Shown here in pieces: positions 5,218-60,447 of a stretch of DNA of 64,000 nucleotides. The stretch comes from Candidatus Zixiibacteriota bacterium. Lineage in GTDB: Bacteria > Zixibacteria > MSB-5A5 > GN15 > JAAZOE01. The notes beneath the pieces were generated by a model. That model searched no databases. It was not told where the DNA came from and saw nothing but the letters and a program-made list of their open reading frames with translations. The stretch is taken from contig JBDREQ010000063.1 in assembly GCA_043819555.1 (NCBI GenBank), positions 32,001 through 96,000 of the forward strand, given 5' to 3'. The position numbers were made by a program, and so were the translations under genes. Every line of letters begins with the position of its first letter. Within the stretch, counting starts at the first letter, position 1.

Positions 5218-5333
5218 CCCGCAAAGATATATCGAACAGCCCAAAAGAGCAATAAATTCACCCATGCTAAAATAGTGTTACGGCGGGTTGCCTTAAAGAA
5301 AAATAATTAGTAGCTTCGGTTATTAATGCAGGG

Positions 5334-48941: not shown

Positions 48942-49016
48942 CCGTTGGGGGTGGCAATAATTGCCTGAGACTATACCCCCGAACCTGATCCGGGTAATGC
49001 CGGCGGAGGAAAACGG
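48942..49016 (+). ncRNA. TPP riboswitch
   Basis: CCGTT-GGGGGTG…CTGAGA…ATACCC…GAACCTGATCCGGGTAATGCCGGCGGAGGA-AAACGG, with P1 CCGTT/AACGG. Confidence 0.93.
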
Positions 49017-49215
49017 TATGGTAATCTGCATTGCGGTGTATCACCCGCCCTAATTCCTTTTAACCGGGCATTACAAAAAAATTAGCGTCGCCTGCCGTGT
49101 GATTTTTGTTTGCAATACCTGCACGGGGTACAGAGCACGGTATCGCGGGCATCAAACAGTCTAAGCGGCAAGCGGCACTGGATAATTTCATTTCTTGAAG
49201 AGGGAGGGAAAAAGT

Positions 49216-51660
49216 ATGGAACGGCTTTTTTTCTTCACGATTTTATTGACGGCTTGGTTTAGTTGCTCCGTTTATGGCGATAACATTCGGATAAACGGAC
49301 ATGTAATAGATGAAAATAATTTACCGATTGCGCGGGTAAACGTAAAATCTGGAAATATCGCACAAAACATTCAGACCGATGAAAACGGAAGCTTTTCGGT
49401 AATTGTCATTTCTTCTAGGCCAACGCGTTTAAATTTCTCGCATGCCGGTTATGTCCCGACATCTATTGATATCGAATCCGGAGAAAATAATATCGCTGTT
49501 ACTATGATTACCCAGATTCACCCGATGGATGGGATTACCGTGACCGCTGGCCGAGCCGTCATGGGTCAATCACCGGTATCTTTTCAAAATATTGACCGTG
49601 AGACAATCGACCGCGATATGGATATCGGTGAAATGCCCGAACTTCTCGATCTGACCCCCAACCTATATAGTTATTCCGATGCCGGAGGGGGGCTTGGTTA
49701 CAGCTACCTCAGTATCCGGGGATTCAATGCCCGCCGGGCTCCGGTTTATATCAACGGCATACCTCTCAACGATCCCGAAGACCATGCTCTTTATTTCATT
49801 GACCTGCCCGATTTCGCTTCCCATCTCGACAACGTCCAGGTCCAGCGAGGCGTCGGCAATTCTCTGTATGGCGATCCTTCGTTCGGAGGCTCGATCAATC
49901 TCCTGACCAGCGTTTTAACGCACGATCGGCAGGCCGTCATCACAGCCGGCTATGGCGGTTTCTGGCAGGACGGAAAAAATATTGGCTTGATGCGCAAGCA
50001 ATCAGTCTTTTATTCCAGTGGACTTTTGGATAATGGCTGGTCGTTATCAGGTCGATGGGTCAAACAATATTCCGACGGTTATCGCGAAAATTCATGGTAT
50101 GACGGCTCCGCCTTTTATCTGTCCCTCGGCCGCATTGATCCCGGGATGATAACAACGGTCAATATTTACGGCGGCCCGATAAAAACACACGCCGCCTGGG
50201 ATGGCATCGACCGACTTACCCTATCAATAAATCGTCGAGCCAATGAGTATACATATAGCAATGAAATCGATGATTTCAATCAACCGCACTTTGAGCTTCA
50301 CAATATCTATAACATCTCCGAAACAACGACGCTAAATAATACAATCTATCATATTCGCGGCAAAGGATTCTATGAGCAATTGAAAAGAGGCGAAGATTTA
50401 TTCGAATACAATTTGTCGGAAAACAGCGGAGGCTTGACAAGCGATTTGGTCCGTCGCAAATGGGTTGAGAAATATCAGACGGGCCTGAACAGTTATATTG
50501 ATTATGATGACGGGAAAAAACAGATTGTTCTCGGAGGATCGTATTACTTTTTTGAATCTGAGCACTGGGGCGAAGTTCTCTGGGCCGAAGAATTATCCCC
50601 CTCGAATCTCAACGAACAGTCACCGTTCAAATACTATGAATATTTTGGCAAATATCACAACATGTCAGCCTACGCGTCTTTGAATTATGCCTTTAATGAT
50701 CGCCTCAATCTATCCGGCAATCTTCAGGCTCGTTATCTTTATAAAAATATACACATTACTCCCCAGGGAATTTTTGATCCGACGATGTACATTCTTGACT
50801 GGTTGTTTCTATCTCCGCGCGTAGGAATTAATTATTCCCTCAATGAAAAATTGTCATCCTATTTCAGCTTCTCCATCGCTTCGCATGAACCAAATGACGA
50901 TATGATCGATGATGCCGACGACCCCTTTGATATTCCGCGGTTGAAAATCATAGATGATACTGCAACTCCAGTAGTGTATGGCGATGCCACCGTTGGTTCT
51001 GAACGAATCTATGATTTTGAATTAGGCGTCAATCACCGCGCTTCAAGATTGTCATTGGATGGCAATCTGTTCTGGATGGAGTACCGCAATGCTCTCGTCC
51101 CTGATGGGGGATTAACCGATGACGGACTTCCTACCTATGGCAACGCCGAACGATCACTGCATCGAGGATTGGAATTAGCCGGGGTGTATAAAATTCAAAA
51201 CAGCCTGCGAATCGAAGGCAATATCGCTCTCAATGATTTCTGGATTAAAGAATACAGCCAGCATAACTGGGATGGCACGACCACCCGGCATCGCAACGTG
51301 GCCACACCCAATTTCCCCAAATATATCACTAACCTGACTTTCGATTATTCAATCAGCGCTTTCGAATTCGTTTATCGCGTCCGAGCCGTAGGCCGCCAGT
51401 TTATTTCACTCGATGGCCGTCATACCGATGTCAAAAACGAATCGGTTGATATATCGATTGCCCCCTTTACCATCTCATCCTTGAAGGCTGTCATAAATCT
51501 GGGAAGTTTGTTAAATGGAACCAATTTTCAATTGGAAAGCCGAATTAATAATCTCTTCAATGAAAAATATGAAACTTTTGGGTATCGCTGGGAGAATTAT
51601 TTCGCCTACTGGCCGGCCGCCGAGAGAAACTGGTTCGTAAATTTGAAAATGACGATATAA
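49216..51660 (+). CDS. TonB-dependent receptor, probable thiamine uptake
   Basis: Plug motifs SIRGF, INGIPLND, VQRGVG…GGSINL; NNLFNEKY; downstream of a TPP riboswitch. Confidence 0.9.
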   Translation: MERLFFFTILLTAWFSCSVYGDNIRINGHVIDENNLPIARVNVKSGNIAQNIQTDENGSFSVIVISSRPTRLNFSHAGYVPTSIDIESGENNIAVTMITQIHPMDGITVTAGRAVMGQSPVSFQNIDRETIDRDMDIGEMPELLDLTPNLYSYSDAGGGLGYSYLSIRGFNARRAPVYINGIPLNDPEDHALYFIDLPDFASHLDNVQVQRGVGNSLYGDPSFGGSINLLTSVLTHDRQAVITAGYGGFWQDGKNIGLMRKQSVFYSSGLLDNGWSLSGRWVKQYSDGYRENSWYDGSAFYLSLGRIDPGMITTVNIYGGPIKTHAAWDGIDRLTLSINRRANEYTYSNEIDDFNQPHFELHNIYNISETTTLNNTIYHIRGKGFYEQLKRGEDLFEYNLSENSGGLTSDLVRRKWVEKYQTGLNSYIDYDDGKKQIVLGGSYYFFESEHWGEVLWAEELSPSNLNEQSPFKYYEYFGKYHNMSAYASLNYAFNDRLNLSGNLQARYLYKNIHITPQGIFDPTMYILDWLFLSPRVGINYSLNEKLSSYFSFSIASHEPNDDMIDDADDPFDIPRLKIIDDTATPVVYGDATVGSERIYDFELGVNHRASRLSLDGNLFWMEYRNALVPDGGLTDDGLPTYGNAERSLHRGLELAGVYKIQNSLRIEGNIALNDFWIKEYSQHNWDGTTTRHRNVATPNFPKYITNLTFDYSISAFEFVYRVRAVGRQFISLDGRHTDVKNESVDISIAPFTISSLKAVINLGSLLNGTNFQLESRINNLFNEKYETFGYRWENYFAYWPAAERNWFVNLKMTI

Positions 51661-51666
51661 TATCTC

Positions 51667-53052
51667 ATGATAAGCTGGTTTGACAGCGGACTTATTTATC
51701 TCTATCTGGCCACGCTATTTGTTTTCGCCCTGATTGGACTTAAACAGAAAAACGGCTCTCGCGAAAACCTGATTTTGGCCGGCAGACGCCTCACTCTTCC
51801 GGCTTTTGTCGCCACTCTCGTATCCACCTGGTACGGAGGCATCCTCGGCGTCGGGGAGTTCTCGTACCTCCACGGCATTTCCAATTGGCTTGTCTTCGGC
51901 GTACCCTACTATCTCGCGGCCGCAATCTTCGCGATATTTCTGGCCAAACGAGCCCGCTCATCGCCCGAAATAACTATCCCGGATAGACTATACAAATTTT
52001 ACGGTCCCGCCGCTTCAGCCGCCGGATCATCAATCCTCATTATCGTCACCCTGCCCGTTGCCTATGTTCTCATGGTCGGCGTTTTGTTAAAAATTATTTT
52101 CTTTATCCCGATCTGGGTCGGCATAGTCGCGGGAACGTTTTTCTCCGTAGCCTATGTAATGACCGGCGGTTTCCGCGCTGTTATATGGACTGACGTCCTT
52201 CAATTCATCCTGATGTTTGTCGGTTTTATAATTCTTTTGGTTTTCTGTTTTACCTCATACGGCGGTTTTGAATACTTAAAAATAAATCTGCCCGACGCCC
52301 ACTTTACCGCTTCGGGAGGAAACAGCGCCGGATACATCGCTCTCTGGTATATTATCGCGCTGGCGACATTGGTTGAACCGGCTTTTTATCAACGATGTTT
52401 CGCGGCTAAATCCGAAGCCGTCGCGCGTAAAGGTATCCTTGTCTCGATTTTGTTCTGGATTATTTTCGATTTTATGACAACCTCATGCGGCCTCTATGCT
52501 CGGGCCATTCTGCCCAATCTCGATAATCCCGTCGCCGCCTATCCGTCTCTGGCAATGACAATCCTTCCCGCCGGTTTTCTCGGTATTTTCCTTTTGTCGC
52601 TTCTGGCGACAATTATGTCAACCGTCGATTCCTATATGTTTTTGACCGCCACCACCATCAGCCATGATTTGTTCTGGAGATTCAAAAAATTCGATGAGCA
52701 AAAAATAGGACAGTACACTACCTTTGGGCTTCTGATATCATCCATCGGAACAATCGGTATCGCCATTATTTCCGATTCGGTCGTGGATATCTGGCATGAT
52801 TTCGGTTCGGTCGGCACTTCGGCATTACTCCTCCCCCTTCTGACATCTTACTGGGGCAAATACAAATTCTCCAATCGCGGCGCCCTGCTATCCATCATCC
52901 TTTCCTCACTATTGACCGCTTCAGCATTATTCTATCCCGGCCTCTCCGGTCAGAGCGACTATCTCTTTGGTATTGAACCGATCTTTATCGGGCTATGCAC
53001 ATCAATTATGATATTTGTTATAACCAGAACAAAAAAAACCATGTTCTTATAA
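51667..53052 (+). CDS. sodium:solute symporter, probable thiamine or precursor uptake
   Basis: LAGRRL, GGFRAVIWTD, YQRCFAAKS, ATIMSTVDS. Confidence 0.88.
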   Translation: MISWFDSGLIYLYLATLFVFALIGLKQKNGSRENLILAGRRLTLPAFVATLVSTWYGGILGVGEFSYLHGISNWLVFGVPYYLAAAIFAIFLAKRARSSPEITIPDRLYKFYGPAASAAGSSILIIVTLPVAYVLMVGVLLKIIFFIPIWVGIVAGTFFSVAYVMTGGFRAVIWTDVLQFILMFVGFIILLVFCFTSYGGFEYLKINLPDAHFTASGGNSAGYIALWYIIALATLVEPAFYQRCFAAKSEAVARKGILVSILFWIIFDFMTTSCGLYARAILPNLDNPVAAYPSLAMTILPAGFLGIFLLSLLATIMSTVDSYMFLTATTISHDLFWRFKKFDEQKIGQYTTFGLLISSIGTIGIAIISDSVVDIWHDFGSVGTSALLLPLLTSYWGKYKFSNRGALLSIILSSLLTASALFYPGLSGQSDYLFGIEPIFIGLCTSIMIFVITRTKKTMFL

Positions 53053-53186
53053 AGTTGTCCTATTTTTAGATGAAGCAAAATTAGATACGATATTCATTAG
53101 CCCAAAAGAACTCTGCCTCTTATCATTTATAGCATGTTGACAAACCCTTACTATGATTATACGTTGAGATATTAGAAAGTTGAATC

Positions 53187-53567
53187 ATGTTGAAACGCAC
53201 GATAAAATACTCGATCGCTTTTTTATTTCTCGTTCTGATGATAATCTCGTGCGAGGAATCTTTTGAACCCGACCAGCCAGTCGCACCAATCGTCAAAAAC
53301 CAAAGTCCGGCCATTACCAGCATGAGCAGCAGCCGGACAAACGTTCCCATGACTGGATTCGTCGTATTCAGCTGCAAAGCGAAGGATCCCTATGGCGATT
53401 CACTCTTTTTCCTGTGGTCGAGTCAGGCCGGCACCTTTCCTGCCGGTGAATCGGGGAATCCCGTTACCTGGCAGGCGCCGGAAGTTGAAGGACTTCAAAT
53501 CATTAAAGTTATTGTTTCCGACAGCCTGCACCAAATCTCCGATAGCATTTCTGTTATCGTTGAATGA
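53187..53567 (+). CDS. lipoprotein with Ig-like domain
   Basis: Lipobox IISC; NQSPAI, AKDPYGDSL, VTWQAP. Confidence 0.7.
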   Translation: MLKRTIKYSIAFLFLVLMIISCEESFEPDQPVAPIVKNQSPAITSMSSSRTNVPMTGFVVFSCKAKDPYGDSLFFLWSSQAGTFPAGESGNPVTWQAPEVEGLQIIKVIVSDSLHQISDSISVIVE

Positions 53568-53728
53568 CAATTGTACAATTCAGAACTTCTTTTCAATCCT
53601 AATCCAAACCTGATTTTCACCTTTCTAATATTTTGAAGTCTGACAATTTTTACCACCCACATCACTGTCAATATCTGACATATATATAATTGTCAATATG
53701 CGATATGTAAGTATTATGATAATTTCAC

Positions 53729-53757
53729 TTGACATTGACAATTTGTCTATGTATATT
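53729..53757 (+). promoter_or_regulatory. sigma70 promoter of the radical SAM locus, embedded in TGACA/TGTCA repeats
   Basis: TTGACA-N17-TATATT. Confidence 0.65.
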
Positions 53758-53813
53758 CTGTTCAAGCTGGAGCTTTACTTTAGTTTGCGCCTGGGGATCC
53801 GTTCGGGGAAGTT

Positions 53814-55166
53814 GTGCAAAAATCTAAATTCAATATTCTTAAGGTCATCGGCGACTATATTTATCTTTATAACGGCCTCACCTGGTCGGTTATTCGTTTT
53901 CCAAATGAGTTTGAACCGCTGATTTATAATATTCTTGACTTCCCGGAAGCGGTCAATGGCTCAAAAGAAATTCAGCTAACCAAAGACATTCTTTATGGCA
54001 ATGGCTTTCTAATCGATGATGATAAGAGCGAAATGGAGTTGCTTAAACAACGATACAATTACGCCAAAAATCATCAAAATTATTGTGCTCTCCAGATCGC
54101 TGTTACGATGCAATGCAATTTTGCCTGTCCTTATTGCTATGAGAATGAGGAAAACAGTTCACTCTCAGCTCAGACACAGGATGCCATCATTAATTATATC
54201 GCCCGCAATATCGATAAATGGGACAGATTATGCCTCGACTGGTTTGGAGGTGAACCTCTGCTGCGGCCAGATATAATCAGGAATTTAAGCAACCGGGCCA
54301 TGGAATTATGCAAAATATCAAAAACGGAATATTTATCAACCATCATAACCAATGGTTATCTCTTAAATAAAAAAAACCTGGAGCTCCTTGAAAAATACCG
54401 CGTGCGTGAAATTCAAGTGACTCTAGACGGCGGACGAAAAACACATGATTCGCGGAGATTTCTCAAAAACGGCAAAGGAACTTTTGATACAATTGTAAAT
54501 AACCTGATTCTGGGAGCAGATATATTTGACAAAATAATAGTCCGTGTCAATATTGAAGGTCAAAGACCAGATGATATATCAGAATTATTCGTCCGCCTCA
54601 ATCCCATAAAGGACAAATTACATATAGGATTTATGCCAATCCAGACAACAGTCGAATGCGACGGACATTCCAATAACTACGCATCTTTTCGACGGGAAAA
54701 TTACAGTTATGGCCGTTTAATTGATTCTCACGGATTTAATCCGTCGGTTACTCACACTCCACCCGGTGGATTATTCTGTGCCGCTTACAATAATAATTTT
54801 CTGCTAATAGATCCCAAAGGAAACCTCTACCGCTGCACTGTTATGGCGGGGAAAACTGAATACCGGATAGGATATTTGCAGGATGATGGAACGATTAAAA
54901 AAACATCAGACCAATCGCCGCACTTGGAATTTGATCCGTTTGAAGACAAAGACTGCAAAGTATGCGATCACCTTCCGATTTGCATGGGGGGATGTATTAA
55001 TATGCCACTTTCGGATAAATCAAATTCAGGCCGGTGCATAATTAAAGATACGGTGCCTTCCTATCTGAGCTCGATAGCCCAAAAATATGAAAATCTCAAA
55101 TCTGTCAAAGGAGGTGATGATGATAACAACCGTACCGGGAACATTTTTAAGGGAAATGTCATTTGA
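53814..55166 (+). CDS. radical SAM/SPASM domain protein (peptide or protein maturase type)
   Basis: CNFACPYC, FGGEPLL, TNGYLL, VTLDG…HDSRR; SPASM cysteines FCAA…YRC…CKVCDHLPICMGGC…RC; ~90-aa N-terminal extension. Confidence 0.93.
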   Translation: MQKSKFNILKVIGDYIYLYNGLTWSVIRFPNEFEPLIYNILDFPEAVNGSKEIQLTKDILYGNGFLIDDDKSEMELLKQRYNYAKNHQNYCALQIAVTMQCNFACPYCYENEENSSLSAQTQDAIINYIARNIDKWDRLCLDWFGGEPLLRPDIIRNLSNRAMELCKISKTEYLSTIITNGYLLNKKNLELLEKYRVREIQVTLDGGRKTHDSRRFLKNGKGTFDTIVNNLILGADIFDKIIVRVNIEGQRPDDISELFVRLNPIKDKLHIGFMPIQTTVECDGHSNNYASFRRENYSYGRLIDSHGFNPSVTHTPPGGLFCAAYNNNFLLIDPKGNLYRCTVMAGKTEYRIGYLQDDGTIKKTSDQSPHLEFDPFEDKDCKVCDHLPICMGGCINMPLSDKSNSGRCIIKDTVPSYLSSIAQKYENLKSVKGGDDDNNRTGNIFKGNVI

Positions 55167-55347
55167 TGCGGCAAAAGAATTGGGAAAAAAATATGCCATT
55201 TATATGGCCAGCTTCAGGGCCGAGATAATTAATGAAGGCCTTAGCGAGCATGAAGCAATGTTTTTACTGAATAGAATTGCAGTGAGCTGTACCCCTGGCT
55301 ACATGGAGACCGTTGGTCTCCCCGAAATCAGAGCCCTCGATAAATAA
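55120..55347 (+). CDS. 75-aa small protein, paralog 1 (candidate rSAM substrate)
   Basis: RBS AAAGGAGGTG; 42/75 identical to 55474-55701. Confidence 0.85.
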   Translation: MITTVPGTFLREMSFDAAKELGKKYAIYMASFRAEIINEGLSEHEAMFLLNRIAVSCTPGYMETVGLPEIRALDK

Positions 55348-55473
55348 ACGACACCTTTGAAAAATCATATCCAGTGTTCAGGAGATAAAACCTGGTTGAA
55401 AAATAATACTCCATTTTTTGAATTCGATGGCCAATAAATATGAACCACAAATTTGCCAAAGGAGGTGATGACG

Positions 55474-55701
55474 ATGGTTGCAAAAATGCCGGGGATGGCC
55501 CTGAGAGAATTGTCAAGTGATGCGATTCGGGAAATGGCCAAGAAATATGCCGCCTATATGGCCACCTTTCGCGCTGAGATCATCAAAGAAGGTCTTAGCG
55601 AACTTGAAGCAAGCGCCCTATTGGATAGTGTTGCCCACAGCTGCGGCGATGGTTTCATGCGGACAGCCAGCCCTCTCGAAATGAGAACACTCGATCAATA
55701 A
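55474..55701 (+). CDS. 75-aa small protein, paralog 2 (candidate rSAM substrate)
   Basis: Same RBS AAAGGAGGTG; ungapped paralog of 55120-55347. Confidence 0.85.
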   Translation: MVAKMPGMALRELSSDAIREMAKKYAAYMATFRAEIIKEGLSELEASALLDSVAHSCGDGFMRTASPLEMRTLDQ

Positions 55702-55713
55702 TTCGTTGCTCAG

Positions 55714-55745
55714 AGGTTATATCTGGTATCCGCCAGATATAACCT
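55714..55745 (+). terminator. perfect 13-bp hairpin after paralog 2
   Basis: AGGTTATATCTGG-tatccg-CCAGATATAACCT. Confidence 0.7.
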
Positions 55746-55783
55746 GTTTGTAGGACTATATTCTATTGTAAGGAGTAATTGAG

Positions 55784-55933
55784 ATGTCTAAGGAAAAAAT
55801 AAATTGGGAAACTGATATAAAAAAAGGATTGGAAGACGCCAAAAACATCAAAGATATCAAGTTACCCTTGAAACAGGACTCGGATCGCAGGAAAATTGAC
55901 GGCTTTAATCCCGGTGATGTCGGCAAGAAATGA
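55784..55933 (+). CDS. unannotated 49-aa ORF MSKEKINWETDIKKGLEDAKNIKDIKLPLKQDSDRRKIDGFNPGDVGKK
   Basis: AAGGAG at 55770-75, 8 nt before the ATG; hairpin at 56017-56042 downstream. Confidence 0.6.
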   Translation: MSKEKINWETDIKKGLEDAKNIKDIKLPLKQDSDRRKIDGFNPGDVGKK

Positions 55934-56131
55934 CAATGGCATTAAACAGGGATATATCTTCATAAATATTATGAAACAAATTGGCGCTTGTCCCCCTTGC
56001 GCCGGTTTTAATCAAGGCAGGAGCATGGGGGAAGGCTCCTGCTTGTATAATTCTTTCTTGTTATAACGATATATTGCGGTCATTTATATTTAAGTGCTTG
56101 CATAGAAACTGAATTTAAAATCAGATCAAGG

Positions 56132-56407
56132 CTACTTCTTCTTACTCCTAATCCTCGCTTCGCGGAATTGCGCTCGCGCTCGACCGGCGGCGACCGCCAT
56201 AACTATCGATTGAACTGCCCCCAATTCTTCATCAGAAATTCCTTCTTCTTTGGCGACGCCAAAGTAATGCTCCATTCATGGATAACAACCAAGCGAAATA
56301 GCCGACGCCAGATGCAGCATCAACGTTGTTTTCGGCTTCAGAATTTCATTGTATCGAGCCGAATCATAAAAATCCTTATATGCCTTAAGTTGTTTATCCG
56401 GTAACAT
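56132..56407 (-). CDS. AhpD/carboxymuconolactone-decarboxylase-like selenoprotein (CYPU), 91 aa
   Basis: GGAG RBS; …LHLASAISLGCYP-UGA-MEHYFGVAKEEGISDEEL…; 17-nt hairpin 56248-56264 begins 11 nt after the UGA. Confidence 0.88.
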
Positions 56408-56433
56408 CTTTATCTCCAATCATTACTACCTTG

Positions 56434-57456
56434 TTATTCCTTAAAATAATATATTTTCTCCGGATCGATCGTCAATGTCACCTTTTGGCCGGGTGATAAT
56501 TGCCACGTGTGATTATCAACCGTCACCGTCAGGGTCAGGCTATTTGTTTTCACTCTCAGGTAACTTACCGACCCGATGTATTCAATTGCCTCGACAATTC
56601 CCTCGATGCCGCTGTCGCCTCCGAGGGTGATATGCTCCGGCCTTATCCCTATTGTATAATGCCCATCTTTGACATCCGGGCCGAATTTTATCGGCAGTTT
56701 CTTGCCCATCCCACCTGAAAGTCTATCCTCATATAGATTAATCGGCGGCGTCCCGATAAACGATGCCACAAACTTATCTGCCGGGCGTTCATAAATCTCA
56801 GCCGGCGTACCTTGCTGGTGAATAATTCCGTCTTTGATAACAACCATCTTATCGGCCATCGTCAGCGCCTCGGTCTGATCATGTGTCACATAAATCATCG
56901 TTACGCCGATTTTCTTCTGCAATGCGACGATCTCCCGCCGCATCTTGAGCCGCAAAGCGGCATCCAGATTCGAAAGCGGCTCATCAAGCAAAAATATCGA
57001 CGGCTCTCTGATAAGACCTCGCCCCAATGCGACCCGTTGTCTTTGTCCTCCCGACAGCTGCGCCGGCCTTCGATTCAAAAACTCATCGAGCTCAAGTAGC
57101 GTCGCCGTCTCCGCTACTGCTTTTTTAATATTATCCTTCGATGTTTTGGAAACTCTAAGAGGAAAAGCGATATTATCAAACACCGTCATGTGAGGATACA
57201 GCGCATAATTCTGAAATACCATCGCTGTTTTACGCTTTTGAGGCTCAAGGCCGGTAATATCTTTCCCATCGAGAAAAATCTGCCCCGCATCAGGGAAATC
57301 CAGCCCGGCGACCAATCTGAGTATTGTCGATTTACCGCACCCGGAAGGCCCCAGTACCACTAACAGCTCGCCCGATTTGACTTCCAGGTTGATATCTCTC
57401 AGGACAACATTGCCATCAAACGACTTAGTTACATTTTTTATTTCAAGTCCAGACAT
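56434..57456 (-). CDS. MalK/UgpC-type ABC importer ATP-binding subunit
   Basis: GPSGCGKST, VFQNYALYPHM, LSGGQRQR, DEPLSNLDA; C-terminal TOBE-like region. Confidence 0.93.
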   Translation of the reverse strand: MSGLEIKNVTKSFDGNVVLRDINLEVKSGELLVVLGPSGCGKSTILRLVAGLDFPDAGQIFLDGKDITGLEPQKRKTAMVFQNYALYPHMTVFDNIAFPLRVSKTSKDNIKKAVAETATLLELDEFLNRRPAQLSGGQRQRVALGRGLIREPSIFLLDEPLSNLDAALRLKMRREIVALQKKIGVTMIYVTHDQTEALTMADKMVVIKDGIIHQQGTPAEIYERPADKFVASFIGTPPINLYEDRLSGGMGKKLPIKFGPDVKDGHYTIGIRPEHITLGGDSGIEGIVEAIEYIGSVSYLRVKTNSLTLTVTVDNHTWQLSPGQKVTLTIDPEKIYYFKE

Positions 57457-57457
57457 C

Positions 57458-58561
57458 TCATCTTTCAGTTACAATACCTTCCGATATATAAAACAATTTC
57501 GCTTTCTTCAAAAGCGGCTCCGGCGGCTCGACCGCCGTCGTCAAAAATACTTGCTTGAACTGTTTGAATAACCCGGCCACATTTTCCCGACGCAACGGAT
57601 CCAGTTCGGCGAAAATCTCATCAAGAAGCAAAATCGGTTTTTCATGAGTGCGGCTCTCGAGAAAATTGGCCGTCGCCATCATCACCGCAATCGCCGCACT
57701 GCGCTGTTCGCCCATCGAGCCGTATCCTTTAGCCGGAAAACCGCCGATTTGGAAATCAATATCATCCCGATGAGGTCCGACTATGGCGGTCTCTAAAATA
57801 GCCTCTTTCTGACGGCCCGCGTTTATTTTTTGTTCAAACTGCTTTTCAATTTCGCCAAAATCATTATACTCGACGTTAGGCAAATATCTCAGTGTAAATG
57901 ACGGCAACCCGTCCGACGTTTTCTGCCCTGCAATCTGAGCGTAGTACCCGGGAGCCAGCGCTTGCAGAAAATGCATAAATCGATGCCGCGCGACCATAAT
58001 CTTCGCCCCCAGTTGGACCATCAATGGATCAAACGGACATTCATCGTCCGATCCGTTTTTCAAAAACGAATTTTTCTGCGCCAATGCTTTATTATAATCG
58101 CCTAAATCTGCCAGATAGCTCGGTGAGGCCTGCGACAGGTACAAATCCAAAAATCGCCGACGCCCCGAAGGCGATCCCGAAAACAAAGTAACATCCTCGG
58201 GTGCCATCGAAATTAAATGAAAAAGTTGATATAGTTTCGACATCCGCACCGGGTTTTCATCAACCGTAATTTTCTTGCGCCCGCCTGCCTGATACGCGCA
58301 AGCAATCCCGGTCGCAGATTTCTCATTACCCAGGTACCCGATCCCCTCCAGCCGAAAGAAATCCTCATCGCCTTCCCGAACCATCATCACATCGCGCGCC
58401 CCGCGTTGAGATCGTCCCAAACAGAGAGTGAATATCGCCTCCAGCAAATTGGTTTTCCCGGCGGCGTTCTTGCCATAAAAGATATTTATTCCCGCGCTTG
58501 GCTGTAATTCGGCCCGGCCAAAGTTGCGAAAGTTGGTCAATGCTAAAAACTCTAATCTCAT
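57458..58561 (-). CDS. recF: DNA replication/repair protein RecF
   Basis: NFRNF, GKNAAGKTNLLEAI, GPHRDD, GSMGEQR, LLLDEIFAELD. Confidence 0.95.
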   Translation of the reverse strand: MRLEFLALTNFRNFGRAELQPSAGINIFYGKNAAGKTNLLEAIFTLCLGRSQRGARDVMMVREGDEDFFRLEGIGYLGNEKSATGIACAYQAGGRKKITVDENPVRMSKLYQLFHLISMAPEDVTLFSGSPSGRRRFLDLYLSQASPSYLADLGDYNKALAQKNSFLKNGSDDECPFDPLMVQLGAKIMVARHRFMHFLQALAPGYYAQIAGQKTSDGLPSFTLRYLPNVEYNDFGEIEKQFEQKINAGRQKEAILETAIVGPHRDDIDFQIGGFPAKGYGSMGEQRSAAIAVMMATANFLESRTHEKPILLLDEIFAELDPLRRENVAGLFKQFKQVFLTTAVEPPEPLLKKAKLFYISEGIVTER

Positions 58562-58646
58562 GCCGTCAAACTAACAAAACCAAATCAAAAACGAAAGCAA
58601 TTTCAAGCCGGGCTTGCGCAGAAACTTTTCATGTTTATATTATCTT

Positions 58647-59603
58647 ATGCCTTGCCATGTTCATTTACTTCAGGACTTCGATGACGGCTGGATCAAAGAG
58701 TTTTCAACCTGCCTCGATTCATCGATCACTATTACCACCGACCCCGATGTGTCTTCTACTGCCAATATCCTCATCTCCGGATCGCCCGAAGCAAAACATC
58801 TGGAGGCATCAAAAATCCTGACGACCCTTGTTATTCCCTGGGCCGGGCTCCCCAAAGCTACCCGAGTGCTAATGAAAGATTATCCCCATATCGCCATATA
58901 TAATATCCATCATAACGCCGCTGTCGTCGCCGAACATGCCGTTGCGATGATGATGGCGTCGGCTAGAAATCTAATCCCGACCGATAAAATCTTTCGCACC
59001 AATGACTGGTCGCCCCGCTACGATAAAACTTCAATATTTCAACTAAAGGGAAAAACGGCGCTAATCTTAGGCCATGGCGCCATCGGAAAGCAAATAGCAA
59101 AAATCTGCCGGACGCTGGGGATGAAAGTTGCTGGATTAAAAAGGGACTTTGATATGGCGGAGGGAACTTATTCAACAGCCGAATTGCCTGCATTCCTCCC
59201 CAAAACCAATGTGCTATTTATCTGCCTTCCGCTGACCCCCGAAACACTTGGGATGATTGGCAAAAAAGAACTATCGCTTCTGCCAGATAATGCGATAATA
59301 GTAAACATTGGCCGTGGAGCAGTTATTCAGGAAGAAGCCCTGTACAGCGAATTAAAATCAGGCCGCCTTCGGGCAGGACTCGATGTTTGGTATCAGTATC
59401 CTAAGAAAGAAAAAATATGGAGCGTTTATCCGCCCTCGAAATTCGATTTCGCGTCGCTCGAAAATGTCATCATGACTCCGCATCTCGCCGGGCATTCGGA
59501 TTTAGTTGAAGAAGATCGCATCGCACAACTGGCCGAACTGATAAACAACCTCGCATCGGGGAAGAAGCCAAAAACCAAAATCGATATTAACCGAGGCTAC
59601 TAA
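58647..59603 (+). CDS. D-2-hydroxyacid dehydrogenase family
   Basis: VAEHA, LGHGAIG, VNIGRG, GLDVW, MTPHLAG. Confidence 0.9.
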   Translation: MPCHVHLLQDFDDGWIKEFSTCLDSSITITTDPDVSSTANILISGSPEAKHLEASKILTTLVIPWAGLPKATRVLMKDYPHIAIYNIHHNAAVVAEHAVAMMMASARNLIPTDKIFRTNDWSPRYDKTSIFQLKGKTALILGHGAIGKQIAKICRTLGMKVAGLKRDFDMAEGTYSTAELPAFLPKTNVLFICLPLTPETLGMIGKKELSLLPDNAIIVNIGRGAVIQEEALYSELKSGRLRAGLDVWYQYPKKEKIWSVYPPSKFDFASLENVIMTPHLAGHSDLVEEDRIAQLAELINNLASGKKPKTKIDINRGY

Positions 59604-59626
59604 AAATATTTTAGGGAGATATAGCC

Positions 59627-60388
59627 ATGATATCCAATCCCGTAATCGACGCCATGATGAATCGCAAATCGCTTCGCAAATACTCAGGCGAAATGCCCTC
59701 CGATGAAGTCATCGAAACCATCGTCCGGGCCGGACAGCAAGCTCCGTTCGCGGCGCAGGCCTGTTCGCTTCTTCTAAAACGTGGCGACAAAAAGATACCC
59801 TTCAAAGCACCCCTGCTTTTTACCATCTGCGTTGATCGCCATAAGCTCGCGCTTATCCTGAAAAAACGAAACTGGGAAATGAAATCGTGCGATCTTATGA
59901 TGCTTCTCTTTGGCCTGCAGGATGCCGTTCTCATGGCTGAAAATATCGTCATCGCCGCCGAAAGCCTCGGGATGGGTAGTTGCTTTTTGGGCCATCCGCC
60001 CATTACCGCGCGAGCTATCAAAAGAAGTTACAAACTCCCCGACGGAGTTTATCCGATCGTCCAGCTCACCGTCGGCTATCCCGCCGAAGACGAACCGACC
60101 CGCCCGCGCTATCCGCTCGACTATTTTTTATTCGAAGACGAATATCCCGAATTTTCTGACGAGACGATTGAAAAAGCCATGAAAGTTATGGACGAAGGTT
60201 ATCTTGCTCAGGACTATTACCGCGATCCCGACATCAAGATTATGCTCGAAGGGGGCCGCGAGGAGACGTTTACCTATGACAATTACAGTTGGACCGAACA
60301 CATGGGCCGCAAATGGGGCCAATGGTGGTCCGAACCCGACAAACTCCTCGAGAACTTAAAAGCATGTGGGTTTGATATTGGGGGATGA
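59627..60388 (+). CDS. nitroreductase family protein (NfsA/Frp-like)
   Basis: RKSLRKY, AAESLGMGSCFLG, VGYPAE…RPRYP. Confidence 0.9.
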   Translation: MISNPVIDAMMNRKSLRKYSGEMPSDEVIETIVRAGQQAPFAAQACSLLLKRGDKKIPFKAPLLFTICVDRHKLALILKKRNWEMKSCDLMMLLFGLQDAVLMAENIVIAAESLGMGSCFLGHPPITARAIKRSYKLPDGVYPIVQLTVGYPAEDEPTRPRYPLDYFLFEDEYPEFSDETIEKAMKVMDEGYLAQDYYRDPDIKIMLEGGREETFTYDNYSWTEHMGRKWGQWWSEPDKLLENLKACGFDIGG

Positions 60389-60447
60389 TTATTTAATGGA
60401 CAAACAGCTATTGAATTTGTTTAATTTAGGATAATGGGGAGAATATT

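Follow-up and report, generated by a model that had tools for sequence, protein, structure and literature searches.

The SCIFF peptides, for which a cofactor-like or signalling role has been proposed, come from a two-gene cassette (scfB-scfA) that is not known to include a dedicated protease or exporter and have a core that is conserved, not hypervariable. Their maturase CteB (PDB 5WHY, 5WGG) combines a recognition element (RRE) for peptides that are made by the ribosome and modified after translation (RiPPs) with a radical S-adenosylmethionine (SAM) core and a seven-cysteine SPASM region. Several other systems bear on the present one. PapB is described as forming Cys-Asp and Cys-Glu thioethers in short C-x3-D/E motifs (PMC9413430), and TigE as an RRE-radical SAM-SPASM enzyme making C-C bonds (PMC10878394). 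In SkfA the Met12 alpha-carbon is reported to carry a thioether cross-link (PMC6231123); Cys-Gly sactionines are reported for StsA and BlaA and a single-Cys precursor for KgrA (PMC10288494). The same source counts nearly 15,000 RRE-associated enzymes and excluded single-Cys precursors such as KgrA from classifier training because examples were too few. Here we describe a cassette of this familiar general type from a Candidatus Zixiibacteriota bacterium. It lies in a stretch of 64,000 nucleotides (contig JBDREQ010000063.1, positions 32,001 to 96,000), called the window below, in which an RRE-radical SAM-SPASM enzyme is encoded ahead of two duplicated 75-aa proteins, A and B, with one cysteine each. 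Features and coordinates are given in Table 1.

The enzyme and its relation to described maturases

The GTG start of the enzyme aligned with the N-termini of its homologues. The protein matched Radical_SAM (E=6.8e-17) and Fer4_12 in Pfam, and exceeded the cut-off of the SPASM model TIGR04085 (49.7 bits against 27, residues 322-401). C101, C105 and C108 of the radical-SAM motif were invariant in an 11-sequence alignment of the enzyme's subclade and also among 120 sequences. Similarly, all seven SPASM cysteines (C322, C341, C381, C384, C390, C394 and C408) were invariant in the 11 subclade sequences, and an eighth, C290, was unconserved there. About 90 residues precede the radical-SAM core. A preliminary description of the locus had named this arrangement of CxxxCxxC motif, seven-Cys SPASM array and N-terminal extension, which the Pfam and TIGR04085 matches and the alignment bear out.

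An AlphaFold2 (AF2) model of the enzyme, built from 120 aligned sequences, reached a predicted local distance difference test score (pLDDT) of 89.6. Its top Foldseek match was CteB (5WHY/5WGG, E ~1e-19). VIA-align superposed model residues 4-423 on residues 1-448 of CteB chain 5why_A (Z 26.9, root-mean-square deviation 4.1 Å, 384 residues), at 17-19% identity in the structural alignment. This alignment takes in the N-terminal domain, and that with TigE covers model residues 1-426 (Z 22.9), whereas those with the anaerobic sulfatase maturase anSME (Z 25.6, from residue 89) and with ChlB start only at about residue 86. Hence the N-terminal 85-90 residues are taken to be a peptide-recognition domain of the CteB type. 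As modelled, this domain consists of three strands (7-12, 15-20 and 25-30) and three helices (31-42, 51-62 and 73-86) with pLDDT >90, the composition of an RRE fold, and it is predicted to bind a leader. The model as a whole points to a CteB-like RRE-radical SAM-SPASM architecture. The preliminary description had proposed to examine the N-terminal domain for an RRE and for contact with the small proteins. On the first count the beta3-alpha3 fold aligned with the N-terminal domain of CteB. On the second, complex predictions with the full enzyme and precursor B entered as alignments scored 0.25, 0.48 and 0.00, the mark being 0.32, in a run without controls, which speaks neither for nor against binding.

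We observed that the NCBIfam full-length profiles scoring highest on the enzyme were all those of peptide maturases: Clo7bot (TIGR04334; 219 bits, nearly full length, residues 3-395), TIGR04463 (216.1 bits, near full length, residues 6-407) and CefB (172 bits). These were followed by FlmE/OhkG (152 bits), geopeptide (152 bits) and PapB (NF047865; 147 bits, residues 91-397). Yet the enzyme lies far under the curated cut-offs of its best maturase profiles, which run from 340 (PapB) through 525 (TIGR04463) to 600 bits (Clo7bot). It also falls short of the SCIFF maturase model TIGR03974 (101.6 bits against 425) and of the anaerobic sulfatase maturase model TIGR03942 (82.8 against 349). Sulfatase, protease and exporter genes are all absent from the ORFs of the 3.1-kb island that holds the cassette, in agreement with the preliminary description. 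By definition, Clo7bot and TIGR04463 mature Cys-containing peptides that are encoded next to them in tandem copies; the partner peptides in the window match no NCBIfam model. A full-text literature search for 'Clo7bot' returned no paper in the collection searched. Judged by these comparisons, the cassette resembles a system of the CteB/SCIFF or PapB type, yet it belongs to no named maturase family tested.

Small proteins A and B and their partner enzymes

A and B are ungapped paralogs with 42 of 75 residues identical (E=3e-29); identity amounts to 34/56 up to residue 56 and to 8/19 over residues 57-75. The only Cys of each ORF, at position 57, stands in the motif S-C-x-x-G-[Y/F]-M-x-T, which reads C-T-P-G-Y in A and C-G-D-G-F in B. 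The two ORFs have the same ribosome-binding site (RBS), with AAAGGAGGTGATGA upstream of both, and the DNA similarity continues ~50 nt further upstream: in the spacer ahead of B (55394-55473), some 50 nt from the end of the enzyme gene are repeated in degenerate form together with the RBS. The tandem duplication that gave rise to B thus took the 3′ end of the enzyme gene with it. ORF A starts 47-50 nt ahead of the enzyme stop codon, and the gap between A and B is 126 nt. The overlap of the enzyme gene with a first 75-aa ORF, the second such ORF downstream, their ungapped relationship, the shared RBS and the lone Cys in its motif had all been pointed out in the preliminary description, and each was found in its place.

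A word-indexed search of ~5.8 billion protein clusters with B returned only its own record (P0001) and P0002 (66% identity). There is no record of ORF A among the matches of B; it was probably skipped by gene callers because of its overlap with the enzyme gene, and family members elsewhere may be under-called likewise. A profile search of all 1.84 billion cluster representatives gave six proteins at E<=0.001, and a second profile search brought the family total on record to 12. Taken together, both large protein libraries yielded 13 full-length sequences. In their alignment (A7), from which the truncated P0134 and the variant P0133 were left out, C57, whose invariance the preliminary description had proposed to test, and G60 were invariant (13/13), and position 62 was occupied by Met in 11 sequences and otherwise by Trp or Leu, once each. 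The invariant motif of the family is accordingly C-x-x-G-x-[M/W/L]. The tail behind it varies from 2 to 13 residues, and the N-terminal part is better conserved than the C-terminal part. In the AF2 model of B, residues 15-38 and 43-55 are helical (pLDDT 73-83) and the chain is disordered from residue 59. So modelled, this is the pattern of a helical leader of ~55 aa followed by a core.

The family lies apart from the described precursors. Neither A nor B matched any family in Pfam or NCBIfam, and ten members scanned singly against both at E<=10 gave only scattered chance matches shared by one or two members. Consistent with the preliminary description, which had recognised in A and B no SCIFF, Nif11/NHLP, PqqA or mycofactocin precursor, none of the ten matched a leader or precursor profile of these families. 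SCIFF precursors further differ in having six Cys against one here, and the leader in the window is a two-helix segment of ~55 aa. The ESM Atlas yielded no usable feature match, its structure matches being generic helical fragments below the naming bar. Five family-specific strings were absent from the 3,421 curated sacti- and ranthipeptide precursors that PMC10288494 tabulates in a spreadsheet, to which this search was confined. Nor did a C-x-x-G-x-M family appear in the titles and abstracts listed by literature searches on radical-SAM thioether precursors. A search of sequencing runs listed no RNA run and one DNA run, the latter with 0.05 of the sampled words.

We then asked where the rest of the family is encoded. 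In five cases an enzyme and a small protein come from source contigs of equal length, which we took as the same contig; adjacency is not implied by this. The pairs are P0004, the nearest enzyme (73% identity), with P0002, the nearest small protein (66%; 9287 bp each), P0009 with P0123 (3698 bp each), P0012 with P0124 (1752 bp each), P0011 with P0126 (3346 bp each) and P0013 with P0130 (1967 bp each). Adjacency is directly visible in the window and in two further loci. In L011 a precursor of the P0125 type begins at 5333, 21 nt downstream of the enzyme (43% identical), which ends at 5311; in L091 the enzyme (37% identical) overlaps a 37-aa ORF that retains only the motif region, N-C-K-D-G-T-M. 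Seven of the 11 members outside the window adjoin, or share an inferred contig with, an enzyme of the same subclade (38-73% identity). The other four lie on contigs of 515-2025 bp, and none is shown to lack an enzyme partner.

The control set comprised 167 loci whose enzymes are for the most part more distant (25-43% identity). In this set the pattern C..G.[MW] occurred in 19 of 6383 small ORFs, and just downstream of the enzyme on its strand only in L011 and L091. On the profile of the subclade enzymes these two scored 701 (the highest) and 342 (the third); the second, L012 (426), has no C..G.[MW] ORF just downstream of its enzyme. A FastTree phylogeny of 123 enzymes placed the query in a group of 12 rows with P0004-P0013 and the L011 enzyme, at a Shimodaira-Hasegawa (SH)-like support of 98, and evidence of a partner was found for 7 of these 12. 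The co-occurrence proposed as a check in the preliminary description is therefore seen both in the contig pairs and in the adjacent genes. On sequence grounds, an adjacent and co-occurring precursor, as is characteristic of RRE-radical SAM-SPASM maturases, appears to be present.

The preliminary description had suggested that A and B are the substrates of the adjacent enzyme, and the co-occurrence together with the invariance of Cys57 make this, in our view, very likely. Alternatively, the small proteins could be accessories of the enzyme, such as a chaperone, a regulator or an immunity factor, with the true substrate encoded elsewhere. At 75 aa they are long for RiPP precursors and have ~40 residues of confidently predicted helix, neither protease nor exporter is nearby, and the binding of the peptide by the enzyme is a proposal, all of which would suit such a role. 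However, their conservation is precursor-like, with a variable, disordered C-terminal stretch around an invariant Cys motif, and they occur here as tandem duplicated copies. In addition, they are always directly downstream of the enzyme, the L091 member keeps only the motif region, and there is no other copy in the genome and no other candidate substrate in the island. We hence regard an accessory role as quite improbable.

Proposed thioether formation at Cys57

As to the reaction, the reading that we favour, with less assurance than the substrate status of A and B, is that the three genes form a minimal RiPP-type cassette which probably installs one thioether, from Cys57 to Met62 or Gly60. 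In this scheme the helical, leader-like part of the small protein (residues ~1-55) would be bound by the RRE domain, and the flexible C-terminal part with C57-x-x-G60-x-M62 would enter the active site. The radical-SAM cluster would cleave SAM to give a 5′-deoxyadenosyl radical, which would abstract a hydrogen from that carbon of the motif which serves as acceptor. This carbon would then be attacked by the thiol of Cys57, probably bound to an auxiliary cluster with an open coordination site, and the product would be a single intramolecular thioether ring (-2 Da). An open site is suggested because seven, not eight, cysteines are conserved in the SPASM region, and by CteB, whose auxiliary cluster we take to have such a site.

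The acceptor is most likely either Met62, which is replaced by Trp or Leu in two of the 13 members, or the invariant Gly60, and we make no choice between them. CteB and PapB, the nearest relatives whose chemistry is known, form non-alpha thioethers, and this would favour a carbon of the Met side chain. The C-x3-D/E ring of PapB resembles in size that from C57 to M62, but A and B carry one motif instead of repeats, and neither Asp nor Glu stands at a constant distance from Cys57. Both candidate acceptors and a precursor with one Cys have precedents, in SkfA, in StsA and BlaA, and in KgrA. SkfB has a Twitch domain in place of SPASM and matches the model less well (Z 18.2).

A and B could also be substrates of another radical reaction, with Cys57 as no more than the peptide's anchor to the auxiliary cluster. 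Such a reaction could be a C-C or C-O crosslink, an epimerisation, a conversion of Cys to formylglycine as by anSME, or a modification of Met62. The same three-domain fold is used by TigE in cyclopropylglycine formation, with an alignment over the full length, and anSME, which oxidises Cys or Ser, matches well from residue 89; moreover the enzyme stays under the cut-off of every thioether family, and in the L012 variant described below the Cys is at a different position. Still, the invariant residue is a Cys, and both the best full-length structural match and the top profiles of known chemistry (PapB and the SCIFF maturase) are those of thioether synthases. The substrate motif of sulfatases is C/S-x-P/A-x-R; its Cys form, C-x-[PA]-x-R, is absent from A and B, as are Val-rich repeats of the TigB type. 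On balance we rate a reaction other than thioether formation as rather unlikely.

A further possibility concerns the product. It might be the intact 75-residue helical mini-protein, neither secreted nor freed from its leader, in which the enzyme has linked Cys57 once, perhaps to a non-alpha carbon of Met62, and which would serve a conserved intracellular role, cofactor-like or in signalling. Such a product would account for the conservation of the core motif, for a 'leader' that is both long and structured and for the lack of a protease or exporter in every context seen. A crosslink from Cys to a non-alpha carbon of Met has, to our knowledge, not yet been described. SPASM enzymes are described as installing thioethers on whole proteins (PMC13692751), which keeps open the idea of a modified mini-protein put forward in the preliminary description. 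We nevertheless consider it unlikely.

The variant in L012 (P0133; 1630-1854, + strand) is a 74-aa look-alike with a similar helical leader, encoded downstream of an enzyme that is 35% identical. Its motif, S-N-G-D-G-K-C, has Asn at the family Cys position and Cys five residues later, at the family Met position. Positions 57 and 62 may thus be a linked pair in which donor and acceptor are swapped, which we offer only as a lead.

Several observations weigh against a thioether-forming cassette with A and B as substrates. As L012 has no Cys at the family position, Cys there is not universal beyond the core family. The four members on the short contigs give no enzyme context, and for 5 of the 12 subclade enzymes no partner was detected, the flanking DNA of these five lying outside the comparison. 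The enzyme misses its best families widely (by the scores of Clo7bot, TIGR04463 and PapB given above), and these nearest families are named from neighbouring peptides, not from a common reaction. Enzymes of the same fold, TigE among them, also make C-C bonds. A helical leader of 55 aa is unusually long, and a leader protease is lacking in the island. Finally, the production of A and B is predicted from ORFs and not from RNA or protein.

If Met62 were attacked at its side chain, or if the product were an intact mini-protein, known chemistry would be extended; otherwise the cassette would be one more uncharacterised member of a large class, in which such radical-SAM RiPP families are numerous. 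In either case the thioether-type radical-SAM RiPPs gain a well-delimited substrate family that is very rare, with only 13 full-length sequences in the two libraries of ~5.8 billion and 1.84 billion protein clusters. What sets the cassette apart is this rarity, the conserved single-Cys motif and the minimal gene set. The invariant C-x-x-G-x-M leads to a simple testable prediction, one ring with two candidate acceptors, and three short genes are easily expressed.

Genomic setting of the cassette

The surroundings of the cassette were compared with G151, a genome of the same genus. Contig 26 of G151 matched the window at 49000-53037 (84% identity) and at 56136-60396 (81%), and the stretch between was unmatched. 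The counterpart slot (L173, G151:C26:135000-139200), between a sodium:solute symporter gene and a carboxymuconolactone-decarboxylase (CMD) gene, is filled with other cargo: a Fic/DOC protein with a C-terminal winged helix-turn-helix (wHTH) domain, a 369-aa ORF without Pfam family and a LysE translocator. Since the flanks match and the interior differs, the cassette is cargo of a variable island of 3.1 kb. From these two sequences, the slot between symporter and CMD genes appears to behave as an integration or replacement hotspot.

Table 1. Positions in the window of the island, the cassette genes, their motifs and candidate control elements
Feature	Position	Strand	Basis or remark
Variable island with cassette	53038..56135		~3.1 kb; flanks syntenic with same-genus genome, interior replaced there
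Sigma-70-like promoter candidate, TTGACA-17-TATATT	53729..53757	+	11/12 consensus matches
RRE-radical SAM-SPASM peptide maturase, 450 aa, GTG start	53814..55166	+	ORF list, Pfam, NCBIfam, alignment, AF2 model
N-terminal RRE-like peptide-recognition domain (predicted), residues 1 to ~88	53814..54077	+	AF2 model; CteB/TigE alignment
Radical-SAM cluster motif C101-x3-C105-x2-C108	54114..54137	+	Alignment
SPASM region C322-x13-G-x4-C341, C381-x2-C384-x5-C390-x3-C394, C408	54777..55037	+	Alignment and TIGR04085
Putative precursor A, 75 aa, alternative ATG 55117	55120..55347	+	RBS AAAGGAGGTG directly upstream; overlaps enzyme 3′ end
Putative precursor B, 75 aa, alternative ATG 55468	55474..55701	+	Tandem duplicate of A
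Perfect 14-bp hairpin, then UGUUUGU	55714..55745	+	Likely operon end

The host assembly, of which the window is on contig 63, measures 3.35 Mb and is 97% complete; A and B are the sole copies in it. Among 285 genomes of the phylum that were searched, the small proteins were absent from the 284 others, and in G151 neither the small proteins nor the enzyme were found. A search of genome contigs with the precursor profile gave 74 pattern matches, none of which was confirmed. Such a distribution could also be that of a recently acquired, silent or decaying island whose small ORFs are unexpressed. The cassette indeed lies in a variable island without counterpart in the same-genus genome, it is missing from the rest of the phylum genomes searched, and the protein search gave a record of B and none of A. 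Set against this, none of the three ORFs is broken, their RBSs are strong, and both a promoter-like site and a terminal hairpin are present; the family-invariant residues persist in A and B despite 44% divergence, and a pair with 73% (enzyme) and 66% (small protein) identity exists elsewhere. A silent island is therefore, to our mind, highly improbable.

A promoter had been placed ahead of the enzyme gene in the preliminary description. The TTGACA-17-TATATT site is indeed there, with 11 of 12 consensus positions. However, promoter-like sites within 53500-56200 numbered 12, against 8.0 +/- 3.2 in shuffled sequences, so that the site by itself is weak evidence of a promoter. The hairpin at 55714-55745 folds with -24.9 kcal/mol (z = -5.2), and none of 200 shuffles folded as well. 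It was not listed by a consensus terminator scan because its U tract is weak; from its stability and position it is likely the end of the operon.

The interval given in the preliminary description ran on to 55933 and so took in a 49-aa ORF (55784-55933). The cassette genes within that interval stand, but no evidence was found that this ORF is a member: it lies beyond the strong hairpin and is without counterpart in L011. A 126-aa ORF specific to the island (53187-53567, + strand) was similarly rejected, as it has no counterpart in L011. By eye only, this ORF has a lipoprotein-type signal sequence; it shows only weak matches to secreted M36 peptidases, in their C-terminal region (E ~0.003), has no G151 counterpart at the same position, and no link to the cassette was found.

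On the other side, a gene of 95 codons resembling CMD and AhpD (Pfam CMD, E=3.2e-09) occupies 56132-56419 on the minus strand, with an in-frame TGA at 56276-56278. The context of this TGA, C-Y-P-TGA-M-E-H, would be a C-x-x-U redox motif if read as selenocysteine. The host genome encodes SelB (322 bits against a curated cut-off of 242), and the reverse frame in the ORF list of G151 suggests that the TGA is conserved there. From its sequence the gene is probably that of a selenoprotein, split in two by table-11 ORF calling. It was discarded as a part of the cassette, being outside the island and conserved in G151.

Finally, other genera of the same taxonomic family have up to five paralogous radical SAM/SPASM enzymes per genome (27-37% identity), and the Cys-containing peptides next to these are of quite other types. 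In L007-L010, short peptides that start with M-x-Y-L-[VI]-D-P and contain 2-4 Cys are encoded upstream of the enzymes, and in L006 tandem Cys-rich peptides of ~45 aa are encoded downstream. By the look of these loci, the lineage is rich in radical-SAM RiPP cassettes.

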